This document shows, in pieces, positions 8,640-33,793 of a stretch of DNA of 64,000 nt. Under the pieces are notes generated by a model that did no database searches, was not told where the DNA came from, and worked only from the letters and a program-made list of their open reading frames with translations. Both the position numbers and the translations under genes were made by a program. Each line of letters opens with the position of its first letter. Position 1 is the stretch's first letter. This DNA comes from Craspedostauros australis (lineage: Eukaryota), in assembly GCA_030167865.1 (NCBI GenBank), contig JALAGF010004003.1:1-64000 (forward strand), given 5' to 3'.

Positions 8640-9743
8640 CTAGTTTGGATTCTTGAGCTGCTCCTCGAGGGATTTGACGTCGCCCAGCTCCCACACCTTG
8701 AGGATCTTGCCATTCTTGCACGTGAATTCGGAGGCGCCCATCCACGCCACGGTCTTGCCGGTGGGCGGGAATCCGAGCAGCACGCCTGTGTGCTTGCCGG
8801 TGAAACGCAGCCGGCAGAATGCCTTGTTGGTTTCGACGACCATGGAATGAATTTCGCAGTGATAATCCGTGAGGGCGTCTCGCACCGTCGTGACCATTCT
8901 CGCAAATCCGTCGTGTCCCACTCTGTCCATGCCGACGTGGCCGTTGAACCGCAGGGATGGGTGGCACACCTCGGGGATGAGCTCGATTTCTCCGCGATTC
9001 CAAATGTCTGATATGAAGCGCTTGACTAGGTCGCGCGTGATTTCAATGGTGGCCAGAGCCTGGTTGCCGACCGGCATGTTGGTGACGGAACTTCCCGTGG
9101 CGTTGCTGCTGCTGCCGTTCATGTTGTTGCTGTTGTTGTTGTTGCTGTTGGCGGTGGACGCCGAGGCGAGGCCCGACATGGGCTGTCCGTTGGGGTGATG
9201 CATGTGGGCCTGATGCTGCGGCATGCCGCCTCCCGGAGCCGACTGCGACATCGTCGGTGGTTTCATGTGCTCCATGGAGGCCGGTGGCATCATCGGCGGC
9301 TGCTCCTGCTGCATGGGAGGCTGGTGGGGTTGGTAGACATTCGGCGGCGGCGCCTTTTGCGGTGCCGGTGGCTGGGTGTTGTGCTGATGCTGGAGCCGTT
9401 CCGTGGGGGTGAGCTTGGTGATGGTGGTCTCGTTGACCAGGCGCCCTTGGGCATCCGTGGTGGTTGTGGTCACATGCTTCTCGTCGCCGATGATCTTGAT
9501 GACCTTCTGCTGCGTCGTGGGTGGCTTGGGTGGGGTCGGAGTGGCGGCAGCTTTGGGTGGTGCGGCCTTGCGCTGCCTCGACGGGTTGTTCGTTCCTGCC
9601 GCTGGCGTTTTCTTCTTCGCGATCTTCGAAGCTGCACCTGCATTCGCCGAAGCAGAACTGGTCGCTGCGTTGCCACTGCTGCTGCCCGCCTTCTTCGACG
9701 AATCCTTCTTTCCCGCCTTGTTCTTCTTTCCAAAGAATCCCAT
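8640..9743 (-). CDS. SnoaL-like ester cyclase / NTF2-fold domain with long N-terminal low-complexity region
   Basis: C-terminal ~130 aa: LVKRFISDIWNRG...RLRFTGKHTGVLLGFPPTGKTVAWMG...NGKILKVW. N-terminus is K/P/Q/N-rich. Confidence 0.85.
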   Translation of the reverse strand: MGFFGKKNKAGKKDSSKKAGSSSGNAATSSASANAGAASKIAKKKTPAAGTNNPSRQRKAAPPKAAATPTPPKPPTTQQKVIKIIGDEKHVTTTTTDAQGRLVNETTITKLTPTERLQHQHNTQPPAPQKAPPPNVYQPHQPPMQQEQPPMMPPASMEHMKPPTMSQSAPGGGMPQHQAHMHHPNGQPMSGLASASTANSNNNNSNNMNGSSSNATGSSVTNMPVGNQALATIEITRDLVKRFISDIWNRGEIELIPEVCHPSLRFNGHVGMDRVGHDGFARMVTTVRDALTDYHCEIHSMVVETNKAFCRLRFTGKHTGVLLGFPPTGKTVAWMGASEFTCKNGKILKVWELGDVKSLEEQLKNPN

Positions 9744-11656: not shown

Positions 11657-12247
11657 TTACTTGGTGAGGAGTGGCTGTCTGCAGCATGGGCAGCTGCAGC
11701 TCTTCTGGAGCCAGTGGTGCAGGCAGTCCTTGTGGAAGACGTGCTTGCAGGTGTCCTTGGAGACGCTGACGATCTCATCTTCCTCGAAGTCGCTGAGGCA
11801 GATGGAGCACATGAGGTCCTCCTTGCAGTATGCGGCGGTGGTTGGTGGCTGCTGTGGCGCGTGAGCGGTTGGGTTGTACTTGGATTCCTTCCAGGTCTCC
11901 TGCACGAGCTGCTCGTCCATGAGCTTCTCAACGAAGGCTGGGAGGTTCTCGGCGTCGGTGCCGTAGATGGAGTAGGCGAAAGAATCGCTGCCATCATCGT
12001 ACTCGCCGTCCATGTCGAGGCCATCGGCGCCATCGGCCGGGGTGCGGACCTGCTTGACGACGGAGAAGCAGCTGCGGATGACGGTCTGCACGGCATCAGC
12101 CACGAGAAGAACCATGATGAGTCCGAGAAGGCCGAGCAGTCTCAGCGGTGACTGGTCCTTGCGGAAGATGACATAGCAGATCTTGGTGGGTGTGAGGTAC
12201 GAACTCTGGGAGAACGATGTGAGTCGGTCGATGCCTGGGAAGAACAT
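11657..12247 (-). CDS. RING-H2 E3 ubiquitin ligase with N-terminal TM (ATL-like)
   Basis: CSICLSDF...CKHVFHKDCLHHWL...CPCCR and hydrophobic LLGLLGLIMVLLVA. ATG at 12247 follows an A/C-rich leader. Confidence 0.88.
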   Translation of the reverse strand: MFFPGIDRLTSFSQSSYLTPTKICYVIFRKDQSPLRLLGLLGLIMVLLVADAVQTVIRSCFSVVKQVRTPADGADGLDMDGEYDDGSDSFAYSIYGTDAENLPAFVEKLMDEQLVQETWKESKYNPTAHAPQQPPTTAAYCKEDLMCSICLSDFEEDEIVSVSKDTCKHVFHKDCLHHWLQKSCSCPCCRQPLLTK

Positions 12248-14571
12248 TGTGTATGTGTTTGTTTGGGTTGGAGAGTGGTGTGGTGTGGTTGTGATTGTGT
12301 TGAGGCGATTGTGTTGCTCAGGATTTGATTTTATGAGAGGAAGGAGGATGGTTGTTGGCGAATGCGCGGTGTTCCGCACAACAGCCATGATCACGAACGA
12401 AGCGCACGCACATCCACCACGACGTGTACGCGGTGGCAATGCGCGCTGGCGACAAAACAAAAACGCTTCTATCATCCACCACGGCTCGCACGAGCGCAAA
12501 AACCACAAAGACCAACTGACAACGAACGAAAACCAAAAGACTAAACGCGGCAACCGCCCAGATACCAGCGAGAAGTACGCGAAAGGAGGGAGGAAGAAGA
12601 AGGAAGAGAAGGCGGAGTCACCACGCTTCTACCCAACCACAACCAAGGACGTAACTCTTCTTCGTGCATTACTACGCAGAGACGTTGGCGAGATGTATCC
12701 GGCGCCACTTTCCGAAACGTCGTGGGCCACCATCAGCACCAAAAAGTCAATACCACGAACACGACCGCCCACAGAATAAGCGGAACCACGCGCACGAACT
12801 TCCACCTTCGCACACCGAAGACAATCGCACACGGCTGAAAACAAGGCCAAAAAAGCACCAACGGAACGAATGCAATCGAGAATTCAGGCGAAAGCCAACA
12901 CAACACAGGCGGGTCATGACGCCAAAACCGAACGACAAAGAGAAATGCGCCACCTCTGATGCGAAAGACTCACTGCGATACAACCTCGCGAAAAGTCAAG
13001 GACGAACAACCGACAAGTGGGAAAACCGGTGGACGGAAGGCTAAGTGTCGGGTTACAATACATGTAATAAGTGCAGCAATCGTGGGCGGACACCTGCCAC
13101 AAGATGTGGCAAGAGTGCGCATACTGCGCGCGACGGGCAGTTGCTCGAGATTGACACTCACCATCTTGTTTTGGTAGCCTTTGTCACTTCGACATCGGGC
13201 CCAACTGGAATGTCAAGCTGAGGAACAAGGCATGGGGCTCTTTGTCAATTAGAGCCTGTTGTGGGGCCGTTGAAGCACAGTGCCTGTCATGCCGTTTCGA
13301 CCAGCATACCAAGGGACAGAATGTCATCCCCGAAGATGGATTCGTCCCCTCTATGTGTTTTTCCGTGAGGGTGCAATGGGCCTGATGACACAAGATCCAT
13401 GCCCCTTCAACAATGTCAACTCGCACTTGTTCGTGGAAGTTGAAACCAACCCAAGACAAACTGCATGAACTATGAGCGAGTGAGAACCAGACCCGGTTTT
13501 GATGCAAGTCATGCATGTTGCGTTCAAAGTTCGCAACACCAGACGTGTGATAAAAATTCGGGGGTGTCCATGCCCCCTCATCTACGTCCGAGAATTCTGT
13601 TGTGGACTACTCCACTCTACTTATTGAAAGACACGTCATCACGAATCATCATGGACTGATTCGTGGTTGGATGAAAGGGGCCTGAAGAAGTCCTATTTTG
13701 TGGTTGTCTCTCCAATCCCGCCATGACTTCTGAGGTATCACAGTGTGGACGAGAATACCATCATTGGTACCAGTGCTTGTGGTGAAGCCGTTTGTTCGAG
13801 TGGACCGTTTTCATTCCCACCACAAGTCGTCACGAATTATCGAACACAAATGCACTAACGAACACCGAAGTTCGAAGAAGTGTGAGCCAAACGGGACCAA
13901 GAATGGTTGGAGTGCTTGCGGGATCCAGATTCAAATCCCGCCAAGTAACACAACAAGAAACAACGCGTGAGACTTTTTCTGCACCACCGAACAGCGCCGA
14001 ACGCAAGCACAGTTCCGCTTGCAACCATGGCGGTCACAACGAACGGCACAGAGATCAGCTGAAGCGATCACCAGTGAGCACGGCAACATCGCAAACAGCA
14101 CGAGCCAAAGTCGAGTTGCGCACAAGCACTTGTGTCCGTAGTCGTACCAATAGAATCTGTCAGTAGTTCGTACGGCCAACTCCATCTGAAGCTGTGACCA
14201 AAACTCTGCTGAGAGCATCATTGCATCAGGAGACACATCGCACATCATCACCCCGTCCGTATCCAAAGACTCACAGGTATTTGCCACCACAACAACGGCA
14301 ACGACAGCAACGACAGCAACAGAGAATAGCACGAACGCAAACGGGAACTAGAGCACAGCACAGCATTGCGTAGCGTAGCGTTTGCCGAGCAGTCCCAGCA
14401 ACAGTCTCAGCAACAGCATCAAATACTCTAACGGAGTCTACACACTAGAGACCAGAAAAGAAGCAAGAGGAGCAACCGACTCCAATCATACGCCGTTCAT
14501 ACGCCAATCATAGGTCGTACGCCCTTTATATTCTACCATTCTAATATTTTACTCATATCAGCGCGCACAAG

Positions 14572-16986
14572 ATGGACGCCACCGGCTACCCATTGAAGGA
14601 CATCCCACAACCCCATGCCCACGATGTGCTGTGCGGCAGAGGCGGAGGCACCAACAACCACATCGGCAACTCCCACTGGAGGATGCTGGTGGCCGCCAAC
14701 AAGCAGCTGTACATCACTCTGCCCAAGCGGCAGAAGATGCTGCTGTCCAGGAGCATAGTCAACGCGGTGCGCAGCCAGAACCCTCCGGGACGCTTCCTGC
14801 AGAAGGACGCCAAGTCCAGCCTCTGGTTCGACGTCGGGGATCAGAGGGCGCAGGAGAAGACGTCGCAGGCGCTGCGCGAGGGCGCTCCGGACATCCGCAA
14901 CAAGCTGGCGCAGCAGAAGAAGGTCCCCGCGGACGCACCTGCGGATACCGTCAATTCGGCCTCCAAGCCTGCGCCAGCTGACGCGAAGGAGGCGTCCGTC
15001 AGCCCCTCCCCGACGGCAGCGACGAGCAGGCAGCAGAGCAAGAGCGGTTCCGTCAGCGCCAACAGCGTCGGCAACACCAGCACGGCCAGCACCAACGTCC
15101 ATCCGCCGGCGGCAGTCTCGGCGCAAGTCTCCGCTGCTTCCAACCAGGGTGGGTACAGCCAGATGAATGGCGGGCACGGCATGCCGCCCATGGCACCGCC
15201 AGCTCAGATGCAGGCCATGGCGGCAATGCAGCAGCAACAACAGCAGCAACACAACAATAACAACACGAACAACAACAATGGCAACGGCAACATGTTCATG
15301 GATCCAAACATGATGGGACAGGCACAGCAGCAGCAAGGGCAATTCATGACCGGTGGTGCAAACAATGCCATGGGCATGCAATCCACCCAGCTCAACAACC
15401 CGCAGGTGTCCGGAACCGTGGTCAGGGGTGCACCGGGCACGCCCAACGCTGGTCAGATGATGTACTACGCGGGTCCCAACATGGCGCCGATGCCCGTCTA
15501 TCCGACCATGATCCTCAACGAACAAGGTCAGATGGTCCCCGCCATGTCCGTCGTGCCACCCATGATGACGGGGCAGATGATGCAACAACAACAACAGAAC
15601 GCCGGTGGATCTGCCATGGCATCGAACAACAACAACAACACCACCATTGATCCCATCGCGTTAAATTCTGCAGAATCGGCGTCGTCCGTTGCAACGCCGA
15701 AGCACCAGTCCAACCTCAGCCATCCGCACTCGCAGAACGCAATGCAGCAACAACAGCAATTGCAGCAGCTGTACCAAAAGAGCCGAGTATCCAACAGAAC
15801 CTCCATGAACCAAGGCCAGCAAGGACAAGGCAACAACAACAGCAACAACAACAACGGTACATACGCTGGCGCGCAGGGCGGCAAATCGGATGGTGTCATG
15901 AACTTTGAAGATTACATAGCGATGCTGCCACCGGATGCCCTGGAACCGGCCGGTCTGTCATTCGGTTCCGTCACAATGACAGATGCGGAGCAATCCAAGC
16001 TCGAGTCCACGGGCACTTCCTTCGGTTCCATCATGTCTTACAAGCCCATTAACTTTGGAGGATCCAACGCAAACAACCGACAAGAACAGGTCGCATTCTT
16101 CAACCAACAAAGGCAGCAACAACAGCAGCAGCAGCAGCAGGGAGGCAAACCACAACATGGCGACAACAGCAACAACAACAATGCGCCTGCCGCACCCGGG
16201 GAAGCGGGTGTGCCGCAGGCGCTGGATGGTCTGGAACCGACCGGCATTTCGTTCGGCGACATGTCGATGATGAGCGTTGGAACGAACAAAAAGCTGGAAG
16301 ACACGGGGACCTCCTTCGGTTCCATGATGAGTTACAACACGATCCGTGCAGACGCGGTCGACGGCGGGTTGGAGGCCATCGGCGCGTCCTTCGGCGAGCT
16401 ATCCATCGACACGACCTCCAAGGAGAAGCTCTTCCAATCCCTCGAACTGGCGGCGGCAGGACCAGAAGTCCCACCCATGTTCCCAGAAACGCAGGCCAGA
16501 TCCACAGCCAACCTCCTCGAATGCTCCGACACGGAATCCGAAACATCGCAGGACAAGCAGGTCCTGCAGGCGCAGAAAAGTGCGGCATGGGAGAAGCTGC
16601 AGGAAAAGTTCGCCCTGCAGACGACGCAGCCAGAAACGGGCGACGAAATGCCGCCACCGCCTGGTGGCATGCCCAGCAACGGACCCACCTTCGTCATGAC
16701 GGGCATGCCGGGACAGTTGGCCATCCCGTCCGCCGCCAACTTTGGACGCAACTTTTCGCAGCTCTCTGCGTTCAGCGTCGGCAACAATGCGGCAGCGAAC
16801 GGCCAGGAACAATATCCCGGAGAATCGAGGCCAGCGGACGATGACGAGGATGAAATTGCGGCCGTGCCTCCACCGCCGCCGCCCATGGCGAAGCATGATG
16901 ATGAAGGTGAACAATTGGAACGGTATTATTTGCAGCGTGGCAATTCGTTGGGTGAAGAATTCGAGGGTAATCGAGCAAGTGTATAG
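14572..16986 (+). CDS. DUF6824-domain protein with Q/N-rich disordered tail (putative regulator)
   Basis: N-terminal HDVLCGRGGGTNNHIGN...IVNAVRSQNPPGRFL...WFDVGD..A.EKTSQALRE is the diatom-expanded DUF6824 signature. ORF is 804 aa and uninterrupted. Confidence 0.85.
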   Translation: MDATGYPLKDIPQPHAHDVLCGRGGGTNNHIGNSHWRMLVAANKQLYITLPKRQKMLLSRSIVNAVRSQNPPGRFLQKDAKSSLWFDVGDQRAQEKTSQALREGAPDIRNKLAQQKKVPADAPADTVNSASKPAPADAKEASVSPSPTAATSRQQSKSGSVSANSVGNTSTASTNVHPPAAVSAQVSAASNQGGYSQMNGGHGMPPMAPPAQMQAMAAMQQQQQQQHNNNNTNNNNGNGNMFMDPNMMGQAQQQQGQFMTGGANNAMGMQSTQLNNPQVSGTVVRGAPGTPNAGQMMYYAGPNMAPMPVYPTMILNEQGQMVPAMSVVPPMMTGQMMQQQQQNAGGSAMASNNNNNTTIDPIALNSAESASSVATPKHQSNLSHPHSQNAMQQQQQLQQLYQKSRVSNRTSMNQGQQGQGNNNSNNNNGTYAGAQGGKSDGVMNFEDYIAMLPPDALEPAGLSFGSVTMTDAEQSKLESTGTSFGSIMSYKPINFGGSNANNRQEQVAFFNQQRQQQQQQQQQGGKPQHGDNSNNNNAPAAPGEAGVPQALDGLEPTGISFGDMSMMSVGTNKKLEDTGTSFGSMMSYNTIRADAVDGGLEAIGASFGELSIDTTSKEKLFQSLELAAAGPEVPPMFPETQARSTANLLECSDTESETSQDKQVLQAQKSAAWEKLQEKFALQTTQPETGDEMPPPPGGMPSNGPTFVMTGMPGQLAIPSAANFGRNFSQLSAFSVGNNAAANGQEQYPGESRPADDDEDEIAAVPPPPPPMAKHDDEGEQLERYYLQRGNSLGEEFEGNRASV

Positions 16987-17322: not shown

Positions 17323-19701
17323 CTATGACGTTTCTTTCGTCTCGGCACCGTCCTGCACCACCCGCTCCTGTTCCGTGGAGATGACGTTGAGCATTTCGTC
17401 CATCTCTTGATCCTTGAGAACGACGGAATTGTACAAACTGCTCTTCGAGATCTCGGTGCCCACCGACGAGGCAAAATTGGAGCACTCCGCCATCATCTCG
17501 TTGACGTACGTGTAGAGGTAGGTGATGAAGCTGTCGTTCGTGGTTGCTCTGCTCGTCGTTGTTGTGGGCGTCGTGTACTGGCACATCTTGATGCATTGTT
17601 CCATGAAATCGTCGGGCAGGACGGATCGCTCCGTCGACGATGATATCGATGAGGCATCGGAAGATGCCATGTCGGTCAATGTTCGGACGTCATCCGCGTT
17701 GTTGTTGGTGTTGATGTTGCTGCGTGTGGGTGTCAGGATTTCTTCCTTTTCTTCTCCTTCCGATGGCGCCTTGATGACGAGGGCAGCGTCGTTGCTTTCG
17801 GCCGTCTCCGGCGTGCCAATGTCCACCTCTTCCATGTCTGCTGCCTGCTCCATGTCGGCTGCCTGTTCTGTAGGTGGCTCTGCGTCTACATCCGGTTCCG
17901 TGATATTGGCCGCTGCTTCCTTCGATGCAACCTGTTGCTGTTGCTGCCGCGCGGGTGACGCGAAGACGCTGTTGGTGAGCTCGCTGGTGGGACTTTGGCT
18001 GCGCTGCACGGCGACATCGACGAAGGGCGTCGCACCGGGGTTGTTGGTGACGAAGGCGTCCAATCCCGCAAAGATATCGTCGTCTTCGTCGTGGCCCATA
18101 TCCTTGTTGTACTTGTCGTGCTTTGAGTTGAGGATGCTGCTGAGCATCTGCGGCAGGTACTTGACGGCGCCCGATTCGTCGGGGGAGAATTGCGTGCCGA
18201 AGAGCATGGAGTCTGTGGAGTCGCTGTTGCCGGAGAGTTTGGATTCGCCGAATATGGTGCTGCCGGCCAGCGTGCTTCTGTCGGTTGCGGCGTTATTATT
18301 GTGAGCGTTGTTGTGAGGAGCATCCTTTGTTGGTGACACGACAGGAACGCCATTGGTGTTGGATGCCGCCTGCGGCTGATCGTTGGATGATTCATCGAAG
18401 GGCGTTGCGTCCGTATCCACCCTGCGAGCATCCACATCCGCGATATTGCCATAATCATCATTCTGATTCTGGATCATATTGGGCGTAGTGCTGTTGCCAT
18501 TGCTGTTGCCATTGCTGTTGCTGGTCTTATGTTGTTGACGATGAGTAGTGGATTCCACCGAATCGGAATCGATGGACAAGACATCGAAGAGCTCATTGGG
18601 ATTGCTGCTCTTCTTGTTCTTTCTGCTGGCTCTCCTGGAAGCCTTGTCGTTGCTTTTGCCTTTGGCATTGTTGGTATCATTGTTGGCGGTGGGATCGTTG
18701 TTGTCGTCGTTGTTGTCGTTGGTGTCCTGAGTCCTGCTGCCATCCACACTGCCGATACTGCTGGAGATGGAATTTGACGCAAGCGACAGAACGCCGTCGA
18801 TACTGGCCTCAAGCTCGTCAAAGATGTCATTGACGAAGTACTGGCTGGCCTGCTCATCGAGCTTCTCGAGCTGCTGATTGAGCGGCGTCGACGATTCGAT
18901 GATCTTGGACCTCTTCTTCTTCTTGCGCTTCTTGGAGACCTCCTTGGCGTAGACCAGCTCCTCTACTTGATCGTGCCATCGCACGTGGTTGGAAGCCGCC
19001 GGCAACGAGGCCGCGTCGATATCCGCCTCGCTGAAGGGCGCGCCAAAGGCATCGGCGTGCAGATCGTCGTTGCGCATGGCGGTGTCGCGGCGCAAGCCAT
19101 GCTGGTGGTACTCGTCGCGCCAATCGTCATCGGATATGATCTCGTAGGCCATGCTGACGGCCTGGAACCGCGTCTTGGTGAGGGAGGAGACGTCGTCGCC
19201 GACGCTGCGGCTGCTCTGCAGGACGACGTCGCCGCCATTGCAATTGGACTCGGCCAGGACCTCCCTGCCGCGCTTGAAGTAGGCGATGCGCACTTGGCGC
19301 TGCGTGGCCGTCTCGGGCAGATGCAGCACGTCGGTGTAGAGGTTGACGTTGCTTCCGAAGCCCTTGACGATGGTGCGGATGTAGCTTTGGGGGATGCTGC
19401 TCATTGTGTTGCTGTTGCCATTGCTGTTCTTGCCATTGCTGTTCTTGCCATTGCCATTGCCTTTATTAGCATTGTCAGGAGTGATGACGGATGGCTTGAG
19501 GATGCCCTTGCTGACGGTGCTGTTGCTGGAGGAGGAGATGCCTGTGTTCACGCTCAAGTTGCTGCTCAAGTTGCTGCTGAAGTGGGCTCCTCCATTGAAC
19601 GCAGTCTTGCCACCCATGTGAGCGCTGCTGATGCAGCTCACGTCGTCTGCGTCGGCTGGTTCCGCAACGGCCGGCTTGGTTACTTGTGGCGCGTCCACCA
19701 T
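17323..19701 (-). CDS. J-domain-like protein (no HPD motif) with long acidic/low-complexity region
   Basis: LYTDVLHL...ATQRQVRIAY...TRFQAVSMAYEIISDDDWRDEY matches DnaJ helices, but HPD is absent. ORF is ~790 aa. Confidence 0.7.
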   Translation of the reverse strand: MVDAPQVTKPAVAEPADADDVSCISSAHMGGKTAFNGGAHFSSNLSSNLSVNTGISSSSNSTVSKGILKPSVITPDNANKGNGNGKNSNGKNSNGNSNTMSSIPQSYIRTIVKGFGSNVNLYTDVLHLPETATQRQVRIAYFKRGREVLAESNCNGGDVVLQSSRSVGDDVSSLTKTRFQAVSMAYEIISDDDWRDEYHQHGLRRDTAMRNDDLHADAFGAPFSEADIDAASLPAASNHVRWHDQVEELVYAKEVSKKRKKKKRSKIIESSTPLNQQLEKLDEQASQYFVNDIFDELEASIDGVLSLASNSISSSIGSVDGSRTQDTNDNNDDNNDPTANNDTNNAKGKSNDKASRRASRKNKKSSNPNELFDVLSIDSDSVESTTHRQQHKTSNSNGNSNGNSTTPNMIQNQNDDYGNIADVDARRVDTDATPFDESSNDQPQAASNTNGVPVVSPTKDAPHNNAHNNNAATDRSTLAGSTIFGESKLSGNSDSTDSMLFGTQFSPDESGAVKYLPQMLSSILNSKHDKYNKDMGHDEDDDIFAGLDAFVTNNPGATPFVDVAVQRSQSPTSELTNSVFASPARQQQQQVASKEAAANITEPDVDAEPPTEQAADMEQAADMEEVDIGTPETAESNDAALVIKAPSEGEEKEEILTPTRSNINTNNNADDVRTLTDMASSDASSISSSTERSVLPDDFMEQCIKMCQYTTPTTTTSRATTNDSFITYLYTYVNEMMAECSNFASSVGTEISKSSLYNSVVLKDQEMDEMLNVISTEQERVVQDGAETKETS

Positions 19702-20673
19702 TGCAACAATCATCTTGTTCTGTGTGTTTCTGTGTGTTGTTGTGTTGTTGTGTTGTGCTGCTGGATGAGGTGATGATCAATGATCAATGATCAATCAGCA
19801 GAGCGCGATGCAGATGCAGTGCTATGAAACGACCTATTACACGCACTACCAGTGATGCTTCTCTTGCTACTATATCAACTTGTCGTCTTGTCTTGTCTTG
19901 TCTTGGCTCGACCTTCGTTCCACTCTTGGCTTTGTCACTTCTTCCTCCGCTCTCCTGTTTGTCATATAATATTGTAGTAATAGTAATAGTAATAGCAATA
20001 GTACTATACTACTGCAGTTCACGAGTCCAAGAACAAGTACAACCACAAGTGCCTCTTGTCACCCTCTCCTCTCTTGTGATTGCCCAATGCTTCTCGCTTC
20101 CTCTCTCTCCCTCTCCCTCTTTCTGCACGAGCACCTCGAACGTCTTCTCCTCTTCTTCGACTCCTCCACAACCGTTTCTCCCTCTTTTTCCATTCCTTGT
20201 TCCCTTGCCTCACCCTTGTGCTCTCGCGATGATCATCACCAACCGCACCAGTTTTGTTTCCAAAATGTGTCATGCCCGCCCACTCGCGACTTCCGCGGCG
20301 CGCACCTCCATTTTTTATCTAACGGAGACGTTATCGCAGGGCCAATGGCACGCACGAGAACGGAAACAGAAGACAAGCGGGACACACCACTTTTTGGCGC
20401 CAATTTTTGGTGTGGTTCGTAAATTCACACACAGGCGCGTGCCAGTGGCGGGAAGTACTGGGCTTGGTGATGGTGTTGGCCTTCACTCATTCTTCACTCT
20501 GTCATCAATTGCATCGGTTGTTCTAGGTTTGGTGCTTCAACTTGGAATGTAATTCTTAAATATAGTATTCTAGCTCTTACCAAAGAATAAAATAGAGGAT
20601 GTGAAATGACAAGGTATGGCACTCCACTCTGTTCACTCTTAGCTCTGTCTCTTGCTTATCGCATGCCACACCT

Positions 20674-21750
20674 TCACACGCGATCGCGTGGCGTCGAGAG
20701 ATCACCGAAGACACCATCGTACAGCTGGATCTCACCGTTGGCCGAGTACGCCTTCATCATCAGAGGTTGGAAGTAGTCCTCGCCCTTCGACATGCCCAAC
20801 CCGCGCCCGCGATGCACGATGACGCCGCCCAGAACGGTGATCTCGCTCACCGTGTTCCAGATGTTGGGTTGCGACAGAATCTCGTCCTTCATCTGCTGCT
20901 GCACACTCTCGGCGCAGACATCGTACATGCCCAACACGGCGGATGCCACGACGTCGTTGTGGTTGCCGTTCGTCTTGGCCACGATCTTGCCGACGTCACC
21001 GCTCTTCGTGCCTGCCACGACATCCGACAGCAACCGCGACGACGGCGATGGCGCGGATTGTCCGAACCGTTCCACCTGTCCCAGCACGCCGTTCGTATCG
21101 ATGCCGACATCGGGCGCCACGATGATCAGAAGCTTGTCGTTGCCATTGCCGGGACAATGCGAAATGAATTCGGACACACCGGGCGCCGCGATGTCCATAG
21201 CAAATACGCCGGTATCGACATTGAGCAACTTGCTCTGCAAACTGGGAATCAAACTGCCCGGCGTGTCGTTCAGTTCGTTGCCAGTCAGCGCCGCCGCGAT
21301 CATGGTGTTGTACGGGAAGTACCCGCGCTTGCGCAACGTCCCCGCCACGCGCAGGTTGATGACAGAGCTCGTGAGGGATCCGCCGTAGTACTGGCCACGC
21401 GATGCTTCGAAGGCCTGCGGGATGGATTGCAGGGCCATGGCGGACTGCGGCGCGGTCATGGCGAGCAGCGGCAGCAGGATGCGGGCTTGGCGCGGTGTCA
21501 TTTGTCCGTGCGCGGGTTCGAAGGGTGTGATGTTGTTGCTATTGTTGTCATTATCGTGATTATTGCTGTTGTCGTCGTTGGAAACGGCCGAGCATCGGCT
21601 GGTGGATGACTGTGCCCATTTCGCAACGCGGTTTGTTGAGAATGCTTGCACCGTCCACGAGTTCGATGGAGAAGGAACAATTCCGATCAATGCAAGCAAA
21701 GCAAAGGTCAGCATCGCAAGTGCGGATCGATTGGAACGATGGTGCACCAT
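20674..21750 (-). CDS. LCIB / theta-carbonic-anhydrase-like protein, plastid and probably thylakoid-lumen targeted, degenerate active site
   Basis: Signal peptide ending VQA-F, then a transit region, then the hydrophobic RQARILLPLLAMTAPQSAMA. Collinear LCIB-like blocks follow: GY.PYNTMIA..L..NELN, SHCP..., APDVGID..G..G.VERFG, ITVLGGVIV, EDYFQPL. Confidence 0.7.
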   Translation of the reverse strand: MVHHRSNRSALAMLTFALLALIGIVPSPSNSWTVQAFSTNRVAKWAQSSTSRCSAVSNDDNSNNHDNDNNSNNITPFEPAHGQMTPRQARILLPLLAMTAPQSAMALQSIPQAFEASRGQYYGGSLTSSVINLRVAGTLRKRGYFPYNTMIAAALTGNELNDTPGSLIPSLQSKLLNVDTGVFAMDIAAPGVSEFISHCPGNGNDKLLIIVAPDVGIDTNGVLGQVERFGQSAPSPSSRLLSDVVAGTKSGDVGKIVAKTNGNHNDVVASAVLGMYDVCAESVQQQMKDEILSQPNIWNTVSEITVLGGVIVHRGRGLGMSKGEDYFQPLMMKAYSANGEIQLYDGVFGDLSTPRDRV

Positions 21751-21790
21751 GATGGGAATATGGGATGGTGGATTGCAACTGTAGTTGTGA

Positions 21791-21833: not shown

Positions 21834-22825
21834 TTGCCAATGATGTTCTTGACACCCACATCATCGGTTTGGATCTATGCCTTGAATTCGAGAAAGATAC
21901 GTTGGGTGTACCAACAGAAGTACTACCCATGAGGTATCTGGATGTTCTTCCGATACGGATGTGTTTGTGGAGAAAGTTGTTCTGTTGCTGACGTTGGTGT
22001 CACCAAGTGGTGGAGTTGGGTGTGCAAACTTGTGCGTGTCTATCCCTCCGGAGAGTATTACCCATCTCGAGAGAGAGAGAGAGAGCAAGAATGGCTTGAT
22101 CGCCTCTACCATCCGCCCCATCTGCAATCTCATGTCCTCCGACAATGATTATGGAAAGATCCGAAACGATTCTCTACAAGCACGAGTATTAGAATGAGTA
22201 ACCTCATTCAATGAGCGTGCAACGATCTTGAGAGACCACCGCGGCTTGGGATCTTTCACTCCTGATGTTGCTCCAGCCCAAATGATGGTGGCGACCTGAT
22301 ACATACAAATACATCATTCTGGAGAGAAATAGCAATCAAAGAAGAGTTATGGTGTTTGCTCATGGAATCTGTAGTTTTAGTTGATGTTAAATCACGCTTG
22401 GTTCCTGTACAAAAAGGAGGAAACAAGATGGAGATGACTTGGAGTGTTCCAATCAAGTCCACTCCACTTCGTTTGCTCCAACAGCAGAGCAGAGGCAGGT
22501 CCCCTCTCGAGCTTCCAGCTGTGCCCGTCGTTGGAGGCATTGCTTGAGGGCCCCGAAAGGGATTGTTGCCCTATCTCCCTGAGTGCGTTTGTTTGTTTGT
22601 TTGCTTTGGTTGGTTCCGCGTCCGAATCGCGTTGTCTGTACACGCTCACGAAGGCGCTGGTTGTGGACATGCGCGCTGCTGTCCACCACGAAGTATCCGT
22701 ATGTTGCCGCATGAACCAATGGGAACGTGAGTGCGTTGTGTCTGTCTGTGTGCAGATGCACGCGATCGTCCGCGGCGATGGTCGGTGATGCGAACACCAC
22801 GTCCCATCACACCAAATCAAGGCGC

Positions 22826-31428: not shown

Positions 31429-32026
31429 AGTCAAGCACGATCTATCCACAACAACAGCAACAACAACAACAACAACAATGCCTCGAGAGCACAAGAGGAG
31501 AGCAGCGTTCAGTTTGTGATATGATTCAGCTCAATGTAGAAGATGAGAAAAAGAGACAAAGACACTTCTGTATAGTATGGTTTTAAGAATGAAGTATGAT
31601 ATTATACTATTAACTTTTCATAGAGGTCTCCTTTGCTTTGACAATCGTATGCGCTCTTCTTCGGAGAGACATGTGGGTATCGATCACGCGAGCACGAATA
31701 GCGATCGGTTTCTGTGGCTAGCACCGACACTGAGAATAGGTAGAGTGCTCCACGGATACTTCCGTCGATTCCACTTCAGTCGTATTCCACGTGGAACTTT
31801 GTGAGACCAACGACCATGTTGTGACACTTGTTGTCAATTTTTTCGTTTCGCCATCCGCAACAAAACCCAGATGCGCCAACCAACATGGAACAGCCACAGA
31901 CACTGTTCATGTTCGTGCTTGTGCATCGTCAGGATCACAGCTTCGGACAGGAGGATCGCCATCACCATCATTGCCAACATCGCTACCACAGCTATCGCCA
32001 ACGCCGCCATCATCAACAACAGTGCC

Positions 32027-33793
32027 ATGATATCACGGCACATCGTCTTCGTTGCTGCGGGCGTGTCAGTCGCGTTGCTCATCACGAGTACACCATCTGC
32101 CGCCTTTTGTGCACAATGGAAGTCCACACGTGATTGTCGGGGATTGGCACGGTGGGGACAACCGCACCAGGGCAACTGCGCTCCAGCTTCAACCCTGCTG
32201 CTGGCATCGTCTTCATCTCCATCATCATCATCATCATCGGCGAGCGCGAAATCAAGCGTGCAACCGAAGTCAACAGCAAAGCCAAGAACAACACAAACAA
32301 AAACAGAGAGAAGGACACCAGCGGCATCAACTGGAAACAAAGATACATCGACAAGTGCTGCTCCAATACGAAGAAAACCAAACATGCATTTGCGCAATGT
32401 GATGCACACTATTCGATCCCATTTCGAGGATACGAACAACCGTGGTGTCTCGTCCACCAAAGCCTGGGCAAGAACAAGAAAATACCTGTACGCCACAGCG
32501 GATCCCGTATCCCTCAAGCAAGTGCAAGAAGTCCTTGACTTCCTTTCATCCATCTGTCCTGCATCGACCGCAAAGAAAGTCGTTCAGGTAGCAGCCCCAG
32601 TTCTAACAAAGGATGTGTCCAAGTTCCTTGCACCAGCATCGGAGCATTTCATCAATGTATTAGGAAATGAGGCATTCCAGAAAGAGATCGATGACGATCC
32701 TCAGTGCTGGCTGTCGAATGTGAAATCCTACCACTCCGAGGTGGCCTGGAACAAACTGGTGAGACATCTCTGCGATGACTGGGGCATATCTTCGAGAGCC
32801 ATCAACAAGCTCAAAGCTTCGAGGGTGGCCATATCAACCGAATCGACAGCTAGAATCAACGCATCTATGACCTACTTGGATTCAGTGATGGATACAGAAT
32901 GGTTGGAGAAACGAAAGAAGACGACATCCACTATCGCCGAACAGATGATCATTCATTGGCCAACTACAATCTTGTTGGACACCAATACAGCGTTGAAGCC
33001 ACGCGCTGAGTATCTGATGCGAAGACTGAACATGACTGAAACAGATTTCACGGCGTTCATGAACCGAGGTGGTGGAGTCACATTGACTTATTCGTCGGAA
33101 GACAAGATCAGACCAATGTTGGAATACCTGCAAACCATGTTGAATCAGCAGGAACTGAAGAACTGTGTGATGAAGATGCCACATATACTGAATTTGGCGA
33201 TAGAGACTTTGCAATCCAGGGTTGAGTTCTTCGATGACATCGAACGACGCCACTTCGAACGTTGGTCTTCTCACACGCCGAACGTACAACAAGGAGTGGA
33301 AGAGCGATCGCTAGCAGTGCGCACACTCACCATTGCACCAGGTGTCTTTGGCCTCGACTTCTCAACAAATGTTCAAGCCAAAATCGATTTCATCAGCAAA
33401 GTGTGGGGTGAAGCCTCATTGGTTCGGAACTTGCGCCAGTTTCCCATGCTTATCACGACGAGTGTAGAAAGCAACCTCAAACCTACGCTCGACTTTTACA
33501 ACCGAACTGGCTACGTGCTCCTGTCGGACGATTGGGAAATATGCCAACAAGAGACGGCACTGTCGGTTGCGTATGTGGCTACATCGCTGAAAAGTCGATT
33601 ATTGCCACGATGGTACTTCGTTCGATCGCAGAACCCTTCGTATCGCCCATCACTGAGTTCCATTTGCAAGAACACAGATGCTGACTTTTGTAAGCACGCA
33701 GGTCTTGATCTGGAGCAGTATTTGGAGTTCAAGAAGGAGCATGGGCCAGACCTTGAACTCCCAGATCCGTCAGATCTTCAACTCGACGAGTAG
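32027..33793 (+). CDS. mTERF-repeat protein, probably plastid-targeted
   Basis: Signal with SAA-F. Repeated mTERF-like units LKPRAEYL, KIRPMLEYL, MPHILNL, NLKPTLDFY, SLKSRLLPRW. Confidence 0.8.
   Translation: MISRHIVFVAAGVSVALLITSTPSAAFCAQWKSTRDCRGLARWGQPHQGNCAPASTLLLASSSSPSSSSSSASAKSSVQPKSTAKPRTTQTKTERRTPAASTGNKDTSTSAAPIRRKPNMHLRNVMHTIRSHFEDTNNRGVSSTKAWARTRKYLYATADPVSLKQVQEVLDFLSSICPASTAKKVVQVAAPVLTKDVSKFLAPASEHFINVLGNEAFQKEIDDDPQCWLSNVKSYHSEVAWNKLVRHLCDDWGISSRAINKLKASRVAISTESTARINASMTYLDSVMDTEWLEKRKKTTSTIAEQMIIHWPTTILLDTNTALKPRAEYLMRRLNMTETDFTAFMNRGGGVTLTYSSEDKIRPMLEYLQTMLNQQELKNCVMKMPHILNLAIETLQSRVEFFDDIERRHFERWSSHTPNVQQGVEERSLAVRTLTIAPGVFGLDFSTNVQAKIDFISKVWGEASLVRNLRQFPMLITTSVESNLKPTLDFYNRTGYVLLSDDWEICQQETALSVAYVATSLKSRLLPRWYFVRSQNPSYRPSLSSICKNTDADFCKHAGLDLEQYLEFKKEHGPDLELPDPSDLQLDE

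Follow-up and report, generated by a model that had tools for sequence, protein, structure and literature searches.

The window analysed here, 64,000 nucleotides in length, comprises positions 1 to 64,000 of contig JALAGF010004003.1 from Craspedostauros australis (assembly GCA_030167865.1). At 21750..20674, on its minus strand, lies an intact, single-exon open reading frame (ORF) that encodes a protein of 358 amino acids (P0001; hereafter the query). An earlier note, made from the letters of this DNA, had proposed that the query is a lumen-targeted protein resembling LCIB and the theta-carbonic anhydrases (theta-CAs), in which all of the zinc ligands have been lost.

The frame that holds the query is longer than the ORF that we assign to it: on the minus strand it is open from 21930 to 20674 (418 codons). 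We prefer the ATG at 21750, as did the earlier note, because this start places a hydrophobic signal segment at residues 9-29, because the N-termini of relatives begin likewise, and because the 60 in-frame codons further upstream cross a tandem repeat and match no Pfam family. Sixteen relatives cover 21513..20677 unbroken in a tblastn search; this coverage in one piece indicates that the query gene contains no intron. The same 16 relatives detected no second LCIB-type gene by tblastn in the 64-kb window. The overall organization of the gene is as follows:

20674..21750, minus strand: whole coding sequence of 358 codons, closed by a TGA stop at 20674-20676
21643..21750, minus strand: signal peptide of endoplasmic reticulum (ER) type, residues 1-36, with a hydrophobic core at 9-29, ending in VQA and followed by Phe37 at +1 (an ASAFAP-like A/F site)
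21499..21642, minus strand: putative transit-peptide-like spacer, residues 37-84, rich in Ser/Thr/Asn, with an N/D-rich low-complexity run
21433..21498, minus strand: lumen-type targeting domain, residues 85-106, with R87-Q-A-R90-I, a hydrophobic stretch at 91-101 and then A-M-A/L
20677..21432, minus strand: mature domain of LCIB/theta-CA fold, residues 107-358 (26.7 kDa, isoelectric point 5.2), recognized by Pfam, AlphaFold2, Foldseek and VIA-align

Presequence and fold of the query

The N-terminus has the two-step architecture that had been read from the letters, namely a signal peptide with A-F and then a second hydrophobic peptide that ends in A-M-A. The first hydrophobic segment (residues 9-29) reaches Kyte-Doolittle means of up to 2.7, the second occupies residues 89-101, and the candidate cleavage sites are VQA/F at residues 34-37 and AMA/L at residues 104-107. 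A (G/A/S)(F/Y) pair follows the first hydrophobic segment in 13 of the 15 other N-termini of our alignment A1; P0007 and P0010 carry VQA-L at that site instead. Phenylalanine at +1 of the signal-peptide cleavage site is a determinant of plastid import in diatoms, and A-x-A marks thylakoid processing. Another feature of the presequence is an R-x-A-R-(I/L/V) motif with a hydrophobic stretch, which recurs throughout the relatives: it is found in 15/15 members of clade A (the clade of the query, see below), 12/12 of clade B, 6/6 of the outgroup and 15/17 relatives with an intact zinc site, including theta-CA2 of Thalassiosira pseudonana. Targeting of the query to the lumen is thus suggested by the homology of its presequence to that of theta-CA2. 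This RxAR-type motif is not the canonical twin-arginine motif, and it may constitute a thylakoid-import signal that is specific to the family. In a longer form, (S/T)(A/P)R-x-A-R-(I/L/V)-x-x-P, the motif precedes the second hydrophobic segment in 48 of the 50 proteins examined.

The mature domain matches Pfam family PF18599 (LCIB_C_CA) with 54.1 bits against a gathering cut-off of 25 (E 1.7e-14); no NCBIfam family was matched by P0001, and clusters of PF18599 proteins in the ESM Atlas, which scored 0.84 at best and so fell under the 0.9 level, are a lead only. We built an AlphaFold2 model from a 17-sequence alignment (mean predicted local distance difference test, pLDDT, 70.1), in which pLDDT is 80-94 across most of the core (residues 110-358) and drops below 50 at residues 1-5, 23-84 and 100-108. 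The top Foldseek match of this model is PtLCIB4 of Phaeodactylum tricornutum (PDB: 5b5y; E 5.2e-11, target template-modelling score 0.73); the remaining matches at E <= 0.001 are LCIB-family chains only, and unrelated folds begin above E 1e-2. With VIA-align, PtLCIB4 superimposes at Z 23.8 over 215 residues (root-mean-square deviation 2.3 Å), followed by 6kfs (Z 23.1), the Chlamydomonas proteins LCIB (Z 18.0) and LCIC (Z 17.2), and the classical beta-CAs (Z 7.5-9.6). These hidden Markov model (HMM) and structure searches confirm that the predicted structure of the query has the LCIB/theta-CA fold, as the earlier note had supposed.

Degeneration of the zinc site in two clades

We read the state of the zinc site from three independent alignments: a phmmer alignment to 9vzj and PtLCIB4, an HMM alignment of the collected domains, and a BLASTP alignment to theta-CA2. 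The numbering of PtLCIB4 has an offset of 15, as established from S47R and H88A in the titles of its PDB entries; by that numbering two of its zinc ligands are C46 and H102, and the third is Cys126. The elements of the former active site are:

21274..21288, minus strand: LTGNE, residues 155-159, replacing L-C-S-D-E; the first Cys ligand has become T156 and the catalytic Asp N158, and E159 is kept
21175..21219, minus strand: degenerate GGL(A/G)G loop, residues 178-192, with F183 and D186 in place of Gly and 7-9 residues deleted relative to the relatives
21154..21159, minus strand: H198-C199; H198, the equivalent of PtLCIB4 H88, does not vary in either zinc-less clade
21103..21117, minus strand: APDVG, residues 212-216, replacing GPHVG; the second zinc ligand, His, has become D214
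21031..21051, minus strand: PSPSSRL, residues 234-240, replacing P-x-T-S-C-G-A; the third zinc ligand, Cys, has become S238, and Gly-Ala has become R239-L240
20773..20814, minus strand: HRGRGLGMSKGEDY, residues 313-326, the lumen-clade loop NRGHGSGxxKGEDY; a near-invariant His has become R316, and residues 316 and 322 belong to the interface of the predicted dimer

All three alignments place T156, D214 and S238 at the ligand positions, in agreement with the claim that no zinc ligand survives and that LTGNE, APDVG and SPSS stand where the family blocks should be; BLASTP, for example, pairs PSPSS of the query with PHTSC of theta-CA2. The GGLAG block, which had been described as missing, is more precisely a part-deleted and degenerate loop (pLDDT 64-73 at residues 178-192), in which the GGLGG of theta-CA2 faces a 7-residue gap in the BLASTP alignment. 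The triple replacement is a real departure rather than alignment noise, because Cys/His/Cys is present in 129 of the 168 full-length domains of 163 collected proteins, and in 25/25 intact-type ingroup rows of the tree described below. Furthermore, the catalytic Asp that lies two residues after the first Cys is kept in 98-100% of intact domains, and its place in the query is taken by N158. The mature query contains just three His residues (198, 264 and 313) and two Cys residues (199 and 279). Since both the Cys-His-Cys ligands and the Asp of the C-x-D-E block, by which theta-CA enzymes are recognized, are missing, the query ought not to be annotated as a carbonic anhydrase.

A first homologue search yielded the 16 relatives mentioned above, all with PF18599, the closest of which are about 48-53% identical to the query. 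We extended this set by a profile search of 1.84 billion representatives, in which 1184 proteins were found at E <= 1e-3 and 120 at E <= 1e-30, and by a metagenome scan that contributed 22 more loci. A tree of 60 rows was then inferred by a quick IQ-TREE search with the four ligand columns masked; its supports are those of the Shimodaira-Hasegawa-like approximate likelihood ratio test (SH-aLRT) only. The ingroup of 54 rows, which includes both the query and theta-CA2, has an SH-aLRT support of 96. The zinc triads are distributed as follows:

Clade A, which includes the query: 16 rows, support 99, 2 intact triads (P0005, P0006)
Clade B: 13 rows, support 100, 0 intact triads
Rest of the ingroup, which includes theta-CA2: 25 rows, 25 intact triads
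Outgroup: 6 rows, 5 intact triads

Taken together, clades A and B comprise 29 rows, 27 of which are without an intact triad. The alignment of the Cys-His-Cys positions across relatives, which the earlier note had put forward as a check on its claim, therefore leads to a wider conclusion: as judged from these sequences, loss of the zinc site is not peculiar to the query gene, but recurs across two whole clades. The minimum number of changes on the tree is five for the first Cys, eight for the His and three for the second Cys. Intermediate ligand states also exist (C/N/C, S/H/C, G/H/C, P/H/S and P/H/P), alongside states of fuller loss (T/N/S, A/N/S, S/N/A, D/S/S, D/S/N, G/S/N, P/N/N and S/N/R). 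From these repeated changes and intermediate states we deduce that the zinc site decayed piecewise and repeatedly, a pattern which suggests that zinc binding ceased to matter early in clades A and B.

All of the named members are diatoms: Chaetoceros tenuissimus in clade B, and Ditylum, Cyclotella, Attheya, Arcocellulus and Thalassiosira among the intact forms; theta-CA2 itself adjoins a Cyclotella-named cluster in the tree, and none of the named relatives falls in clade A. No species with both a zinc-less and an intact copy appears among the cluster names. One clade B cluster (P0202) includes an MMETSP transcript. The Chaetoceros tenuissimus gene of clade B (P0023 cluster) is represented by two adjacent short models, GFH60902.1 (87 amino acids) and GFH60903.1 (220 amino acids); this is probably a split gene model, the other members of the cluster being 367-372 amino acids long. 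In one metagenome relative (L018:2830-4112) the domain is spread over two frames, with S/Q in the first piece and an intact C-G-A in the second, a layout that suggests an intron or a frameshift, and a further ligand state.

The nearest named relative of the query is P0247, which came from a search started with a clade B member, and which carries the nr name 'theta carbonic anhydrase 2 [Thalassiosira pseudonana CCMP1335]'. BLASTP aligns this protein with the query over 308 amino acids at 34% identity (E 4e-47), and the alignment starts within the lumen-targeting domain (REARITTPL in theta-CA2, RQARILLPL in the query). The two proteins are of similar length (364 and 358 amino acids) and share a tripartite presequence with RxARI, a hydrophobic segment and A-x-A, the LCIB fold, the NRGHG-type loop, the SHCP motif and the C-terminal block, in addition to their membership of the 54-row ingroup. 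They differ in that theta-CA2 keeps the full Cys/Asp/His/Cys set, together with C-G-A and GGLGG, whereas the query has T156, N158, D214, S238, S-R-L and the 7-residue gap; furthermore, theta-CA2 has been localized by experiment, whereas a location for the query is predicted from its presequence. Published reports place theta-CA2 in the pyrenoid-penetrating thylakoid, where it is taken to convert HCO3- to CO2 (PMC11142338; PMC13655443; bioRxiv 10.1101/2023.10.26.564148); its abundance is up 1.40-fold at low CO2 (bioRxiv 10.1101/2025.06.11.659125). By alignment and tree position, the query does not represent a separate partner family, but descends from within the lumenal theta-CA2 lineage.

We also asked which columns have changed along with the ligands, by a scan in which 15 clade A and 8 clade B rows were set against 19 intact lumen-type and 117 further intact domains. 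Conservation in the intact sets has given way to relaxation in clade A at just eight columns (156, 183, 186, 194, 214, 238, 239 and 240), namely those of the three ligands, of the Gly-Ala after the second Cys and of the GGLAG region. A much larger group of residues is fixed in both zinc-less clades (N148, T149, E159, H198, P200, G203, P213, G216, G221, G224, R228, G230, G308, G309, D325, F327, P329, F348 and P354), and positions typical of the lumen clade are kept too: R134, T163, P164, D179, G181, E227, the R-G-H-G-x-G loop and D350. Among the other 25 members of its immediate group, 37 columns are invariant; the query retains 33 of them, in an ORF that is, as had been claimed, intact over its 358 codons.

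The ratio of nonsynonymous to synonymous substitution rates (dN/dS), a measure which had also been proposed as a check, was computed by the Nei-Gojobori method over whole stop-to-stop ORFs. Among zinc-less clade B pairs it is 0.23 for L009-L003 (dS 0.53), 0.18 for L003-L019 (dS 0.06) and 0.22 for L009-L019; intact pairs with unsaturated dS (below 1.3) give 0.15-0.18. Values so near to those of intact pairs describe purifying selection, and the zinc-less relatives are therefore maintained genes.

Predicted dimer, proposed role and rival explanations

When residues 107-358 were modelled as a pair of identical chains, the predicted homodimer had a median score of 0.35, as compared to 0.00 for the best of three controls. 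In calibration sets of microbial proteins, the mark for such predictions was reached by 21/30 that had been solved as pairs of one chain, but by 0/23 that had been solved as single chains; for eukaryotic proteins the corresponding numbers are 17/29 and 0/30, although only 1/7 pairs without an older solved relative reached it. The dimer runs share at least 75% of their contacts, with a partner pLDDT of at least 79. The predicted interface consists of residues 150, 152, 157-159, 162-164, 177-186, 191, 194, 197-202, 228-231, 235-236, 239, 316 and 322; in other words, it is the former active-site face, and it includes E159, H198, R228, T163-P164, D179-G181 and residue 316 of the clade loop. The location of the conserved cleft residues in this predicted interface would explain their conservation without catalysis. 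For LCIB/LCIC, section 16 of one review describes an intersubunit cleft in which a His and an Arg decide active-site integrity (PMC5876011), a remark that the predicted dimer fits.

Tandem two-domain theta-CAs offer a natural parallel: of the 24 among the collected proteins, 5 have a non-canonical domain and 4 pair an intact domain with a degenerate one, so the pairing of a live with a dead site does occur naturally in this family. In P0028, P0055, P0074 and P0116 one domain has lost zinc ligands (states DHC, SHD, GNC and PRV) and the other domain is intact, whereas P0067 has a non-canonical site in each of its domains (SQP and SHC). Such tandem homologues may be natural live/dead pseudo-dimers.

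We consider it reasonably probable that the query is a zinc-free, catalytically dead descendant of the diatom lumenal theta-CA, of the theta-CA2 type; it is probably a non-catalytic protein of a conserved zinc-less group. The protein would be imported through the ER and the plastid envelope and then into the thylakoid lumen, where cleavage after A-M-A would release a 27-kDa form. With no zinc-bound hydroxide, it could not hydrate CO2 by the beta/theta-CA mechanism. Dimerization would persist through the former active-site cleft, and would account for the conservation of cleft residues that bind no zinc. In the lumen such a protein would have a structural or regulatory role, in association with a second copy of itself or with a catalytic theta-CA subunit; the heteropair would combine one live and one dead site, much as the tandem theta-CAs with one degenerate domain do. 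Within this core proposal, we give a true theta-CA partner no better than one chance in three.

A number of points weigh against this interpretation. Joining clades A and B into one group is weakly supported (SH-aLRT 82-89; 95 in an 80-row tree), and the trees are quick searches. The dN/dS values come from clade B and not from the clade of the query, whose nearest relative is only ~48-53% identical to it. The query is also the most deviant of the 26 members compared, with four changes at invariant columns as against 0-2 in the others (S154A, H316R, and one Gly and one Pro gone with the loop deletion), in addition to D158N, and it could be further along a path of decay. The invariance of E159, H198 and R228 also fits a retained ligand-binding or catalytic pocket. 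The passing score of the dimer may reflect the model's memory of solved LCIB-family dimers, and is silent on a heterodimer. Lastly, no functional link to carbon concentration is evident among the neighbours, which are DUF6824, DnaJ-like, RING, SnoaL and mTERF proteins.

Some of these points are best considered in the light of specific alternatives. The query might be non-catalytic but reside elsewhere, in the stroma, the periplastidial space or the ER, if its second hydrophobic segment were an anchor or a part of the mature protein. This proposal, which overlaps the other readings, draws on the difference between R-x-A-R and the canonical twin-arginine motif, on a spacer in which acidic residues and Asn are more frequent than is usual in transit peptides (5 D+E and 10 N among 48 residues), on the helical state of residues 86-121 in the AlphaFold2 model, and on the occurrence of RxAR in 6/6 outgroup rows, themselves without a known location. 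We think it unlikely, given that an alignable domain occupies the same position in theta-CA2, a protein which the literature places in the pyrenoid-penetrating thylakoid, and that the query and most relatives have an A-x-A end after the hydrophobic segment. It is highly unlikely, in our estimation, that the query is a dying copy, that is, a recently inactivated or unexpressed and functionless relic of the zinc-less clade. Its deviations at S154A, H316R, D158N and the loop Gly and Pro, and its long terminal branch (0.56), are what such a relic might be expected to display, but it has an unbroken frame of 358 codons that includes the whole presequence, its core is well folded in the model (pLDDT 80-94 over most of residues 110-358), and 33/37 clade-invariant columns have been retained on that branch of 0.56 changes per column. 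Moreover, the branch of P0007 is equally long (0.71), and sparse sampling would therefore explain the branch length of the query.

Alternatively, the query might still be an enzyme. Its pocket might be metal-free, or might hold a hard metal (Mn, Ca or Mg) on D214, E159 and H198 or H313, and it might interconvert CO2 and HCO3- or catalyse some other reaction, in which case the loss of Cys/His/Cys would be a zinc-sparing adaptation. The zinc-less relatives are, after all, under purifying selection, with E159, H198 and R228 invariant in clades A and B; the PtLCIB4 equivalent of H198 (H88) was picked for mutation by the depositors of entry 5b5z; the corresponding His and Arg of LCIB/LCIC are stated to be important for active-site integrity (PMC5876011, section 16); and a carbonic anhydrase that acts without metal cofactors has been described (PMC8132391). 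We nevertheless regard an enzymatic query as quite improbable. There is no conserved replacement ligand set: the three positions read T/A/S/D/G/P, D/N/S/H and S/N/A/G/R/P, and some of these residues are unable to bind a metal. The mature query offers just three His and two Cys residues, of which C199 is unconserved, and the conserved cleft residues lie within the predicted dimer interface. An alternative conserved metal site was also considered and rejected, there being no consistent replacement residues across clades A and B.

Known systems, significance and surroundings

PtLCIB4 (PDB: 5b5y, 5b5z and 5b60), the best structural match of the query, has H88 and E49 in the positions of H198 and E159. 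On the other hand, it is just ~18% identical, its zinc triad is present, the crystallized chain has no lumen-type presequence, and the RG(H/R)G loop of the query is the longer of the two. The Chlamydomonas proteins LCIB and LCIC (5k5w, 5b5x) share the fold of the query. In section 16 of a review they are described as a heteromultimer, the purified proteins of which are without CA activity, and are proposed to form a non-catalytic barrier (PMC5876011). They have the beta-CA zinc-binding motif and are stromal or peri-pyrenoidal, according to the same part of that source (PMC5876011), whereas the query has lost its ligands and carries a lumen-type presequence. Pt43233 (Pt-theta-CA1) of P. tricornutum is a theta-class protein reported in the lumen of the pyrenoid-penetrating thylakoid (PMC7215798, PMC11142338); it is 517 amino acids long (PMC7215798), and is described as an active CA.

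The CsoSCA structure matches the query model at Z 6.0 only in VIA-align. Pseudo-enzymes derived from carbonic anhydrases, which the query would most resemble in its way of working, include the animal CA-related proteins (CARPs) VIII, X and XI, the zinc-less C-terminal domain of CsoSCA, and the gamma-CA-like subunits of plant complex I, all of which have kept the CA fold after the loss of metal ligands and have reused it for binding or scaffolding. In carboxysomal CsoSCA a live beta-CA domain is accompanied by a dead one, an arrangement also seen in the 4/24 tandem theta-CAs here. These precedents belong to other CA classes or contexts, and none is of the theta class or from the thylakoid lumen.

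In the diatom CO2-concentrating mechanism, the step that releases CO2 is attributed to the lumenal theta-CA (PMC11142338, PMC13655443, bioRxiv 10.1101/2023.10.26.564148). Full-text literature searches, the scope of which excludes Kikutani 2016, Jin 2016, Nawaly 2023 and their supplements, brought up no account of diatom theta-CA homologues without zinc ligands. The zinc-less clades would add an unrecognized, probably non-catalytic component to the lumen, and they raise the question of whether the lumenal step is performed by the same enzyme in all diatoms. Their sites, which range from partly to fully degraded (C/N/C, S/H/C, P/H/S, T/N/S, D/S/N and others), also form a natural series in which the passage from a carbonic anhydrase to a pseudo-enzyme can be studied. 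To us this clade-level pattern is of more interest than the single gene. A more far-reaching proposal, which we think rather unlikely, is that many diatoms keep, under selection, a zinc-free copy of the lumenal theta-CA that takes a working part in evolving CO2 within the pyrenoid-penetrating thylakoid. The copy would be either an indispensable dead subunit, paired with the catalytic theta-CA and positioning or regulating it, or an enzyme that needs no metal and so saves zinc in zinc-poor seas; in some lineages, possibly that of the query, it may be the sole theta-CA2-type protein left. Were that so, the lumenal CO2-release step would be done differently in such lineages.

As for the surroundings of the query gene, no Pfam family is matched by the opposite-strand ORFs at 20792-21388 and 20812-21609, by the 60 upstream codons or by an ORF at 19824-20552, and we have therefore treated these as non-coding. 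On one side of the query lie a long Asn/Ser-rich protein (17323-19713, minus strand) whose DnaJ match, at 20 bits, falls short of the cut-off of 27.8 and, beyond it, a DUF6824 protein (14572-16986, plus strand; 104 bits); RING-finger, SnoaL-domain and mTERF proteins are encoded further out, at 11657-12475, 8640-9743 and 31871-33793, respectively. The part of the frame upstream of the preferred start contains 5.4 copies of an 8-bp tandem repeat, GTGCATGG, at 21788/21791-21833, 38 bases from that start; the repeat can also be read with a 24-bp period. A (GA)8.5 run is located at 22069-22085.

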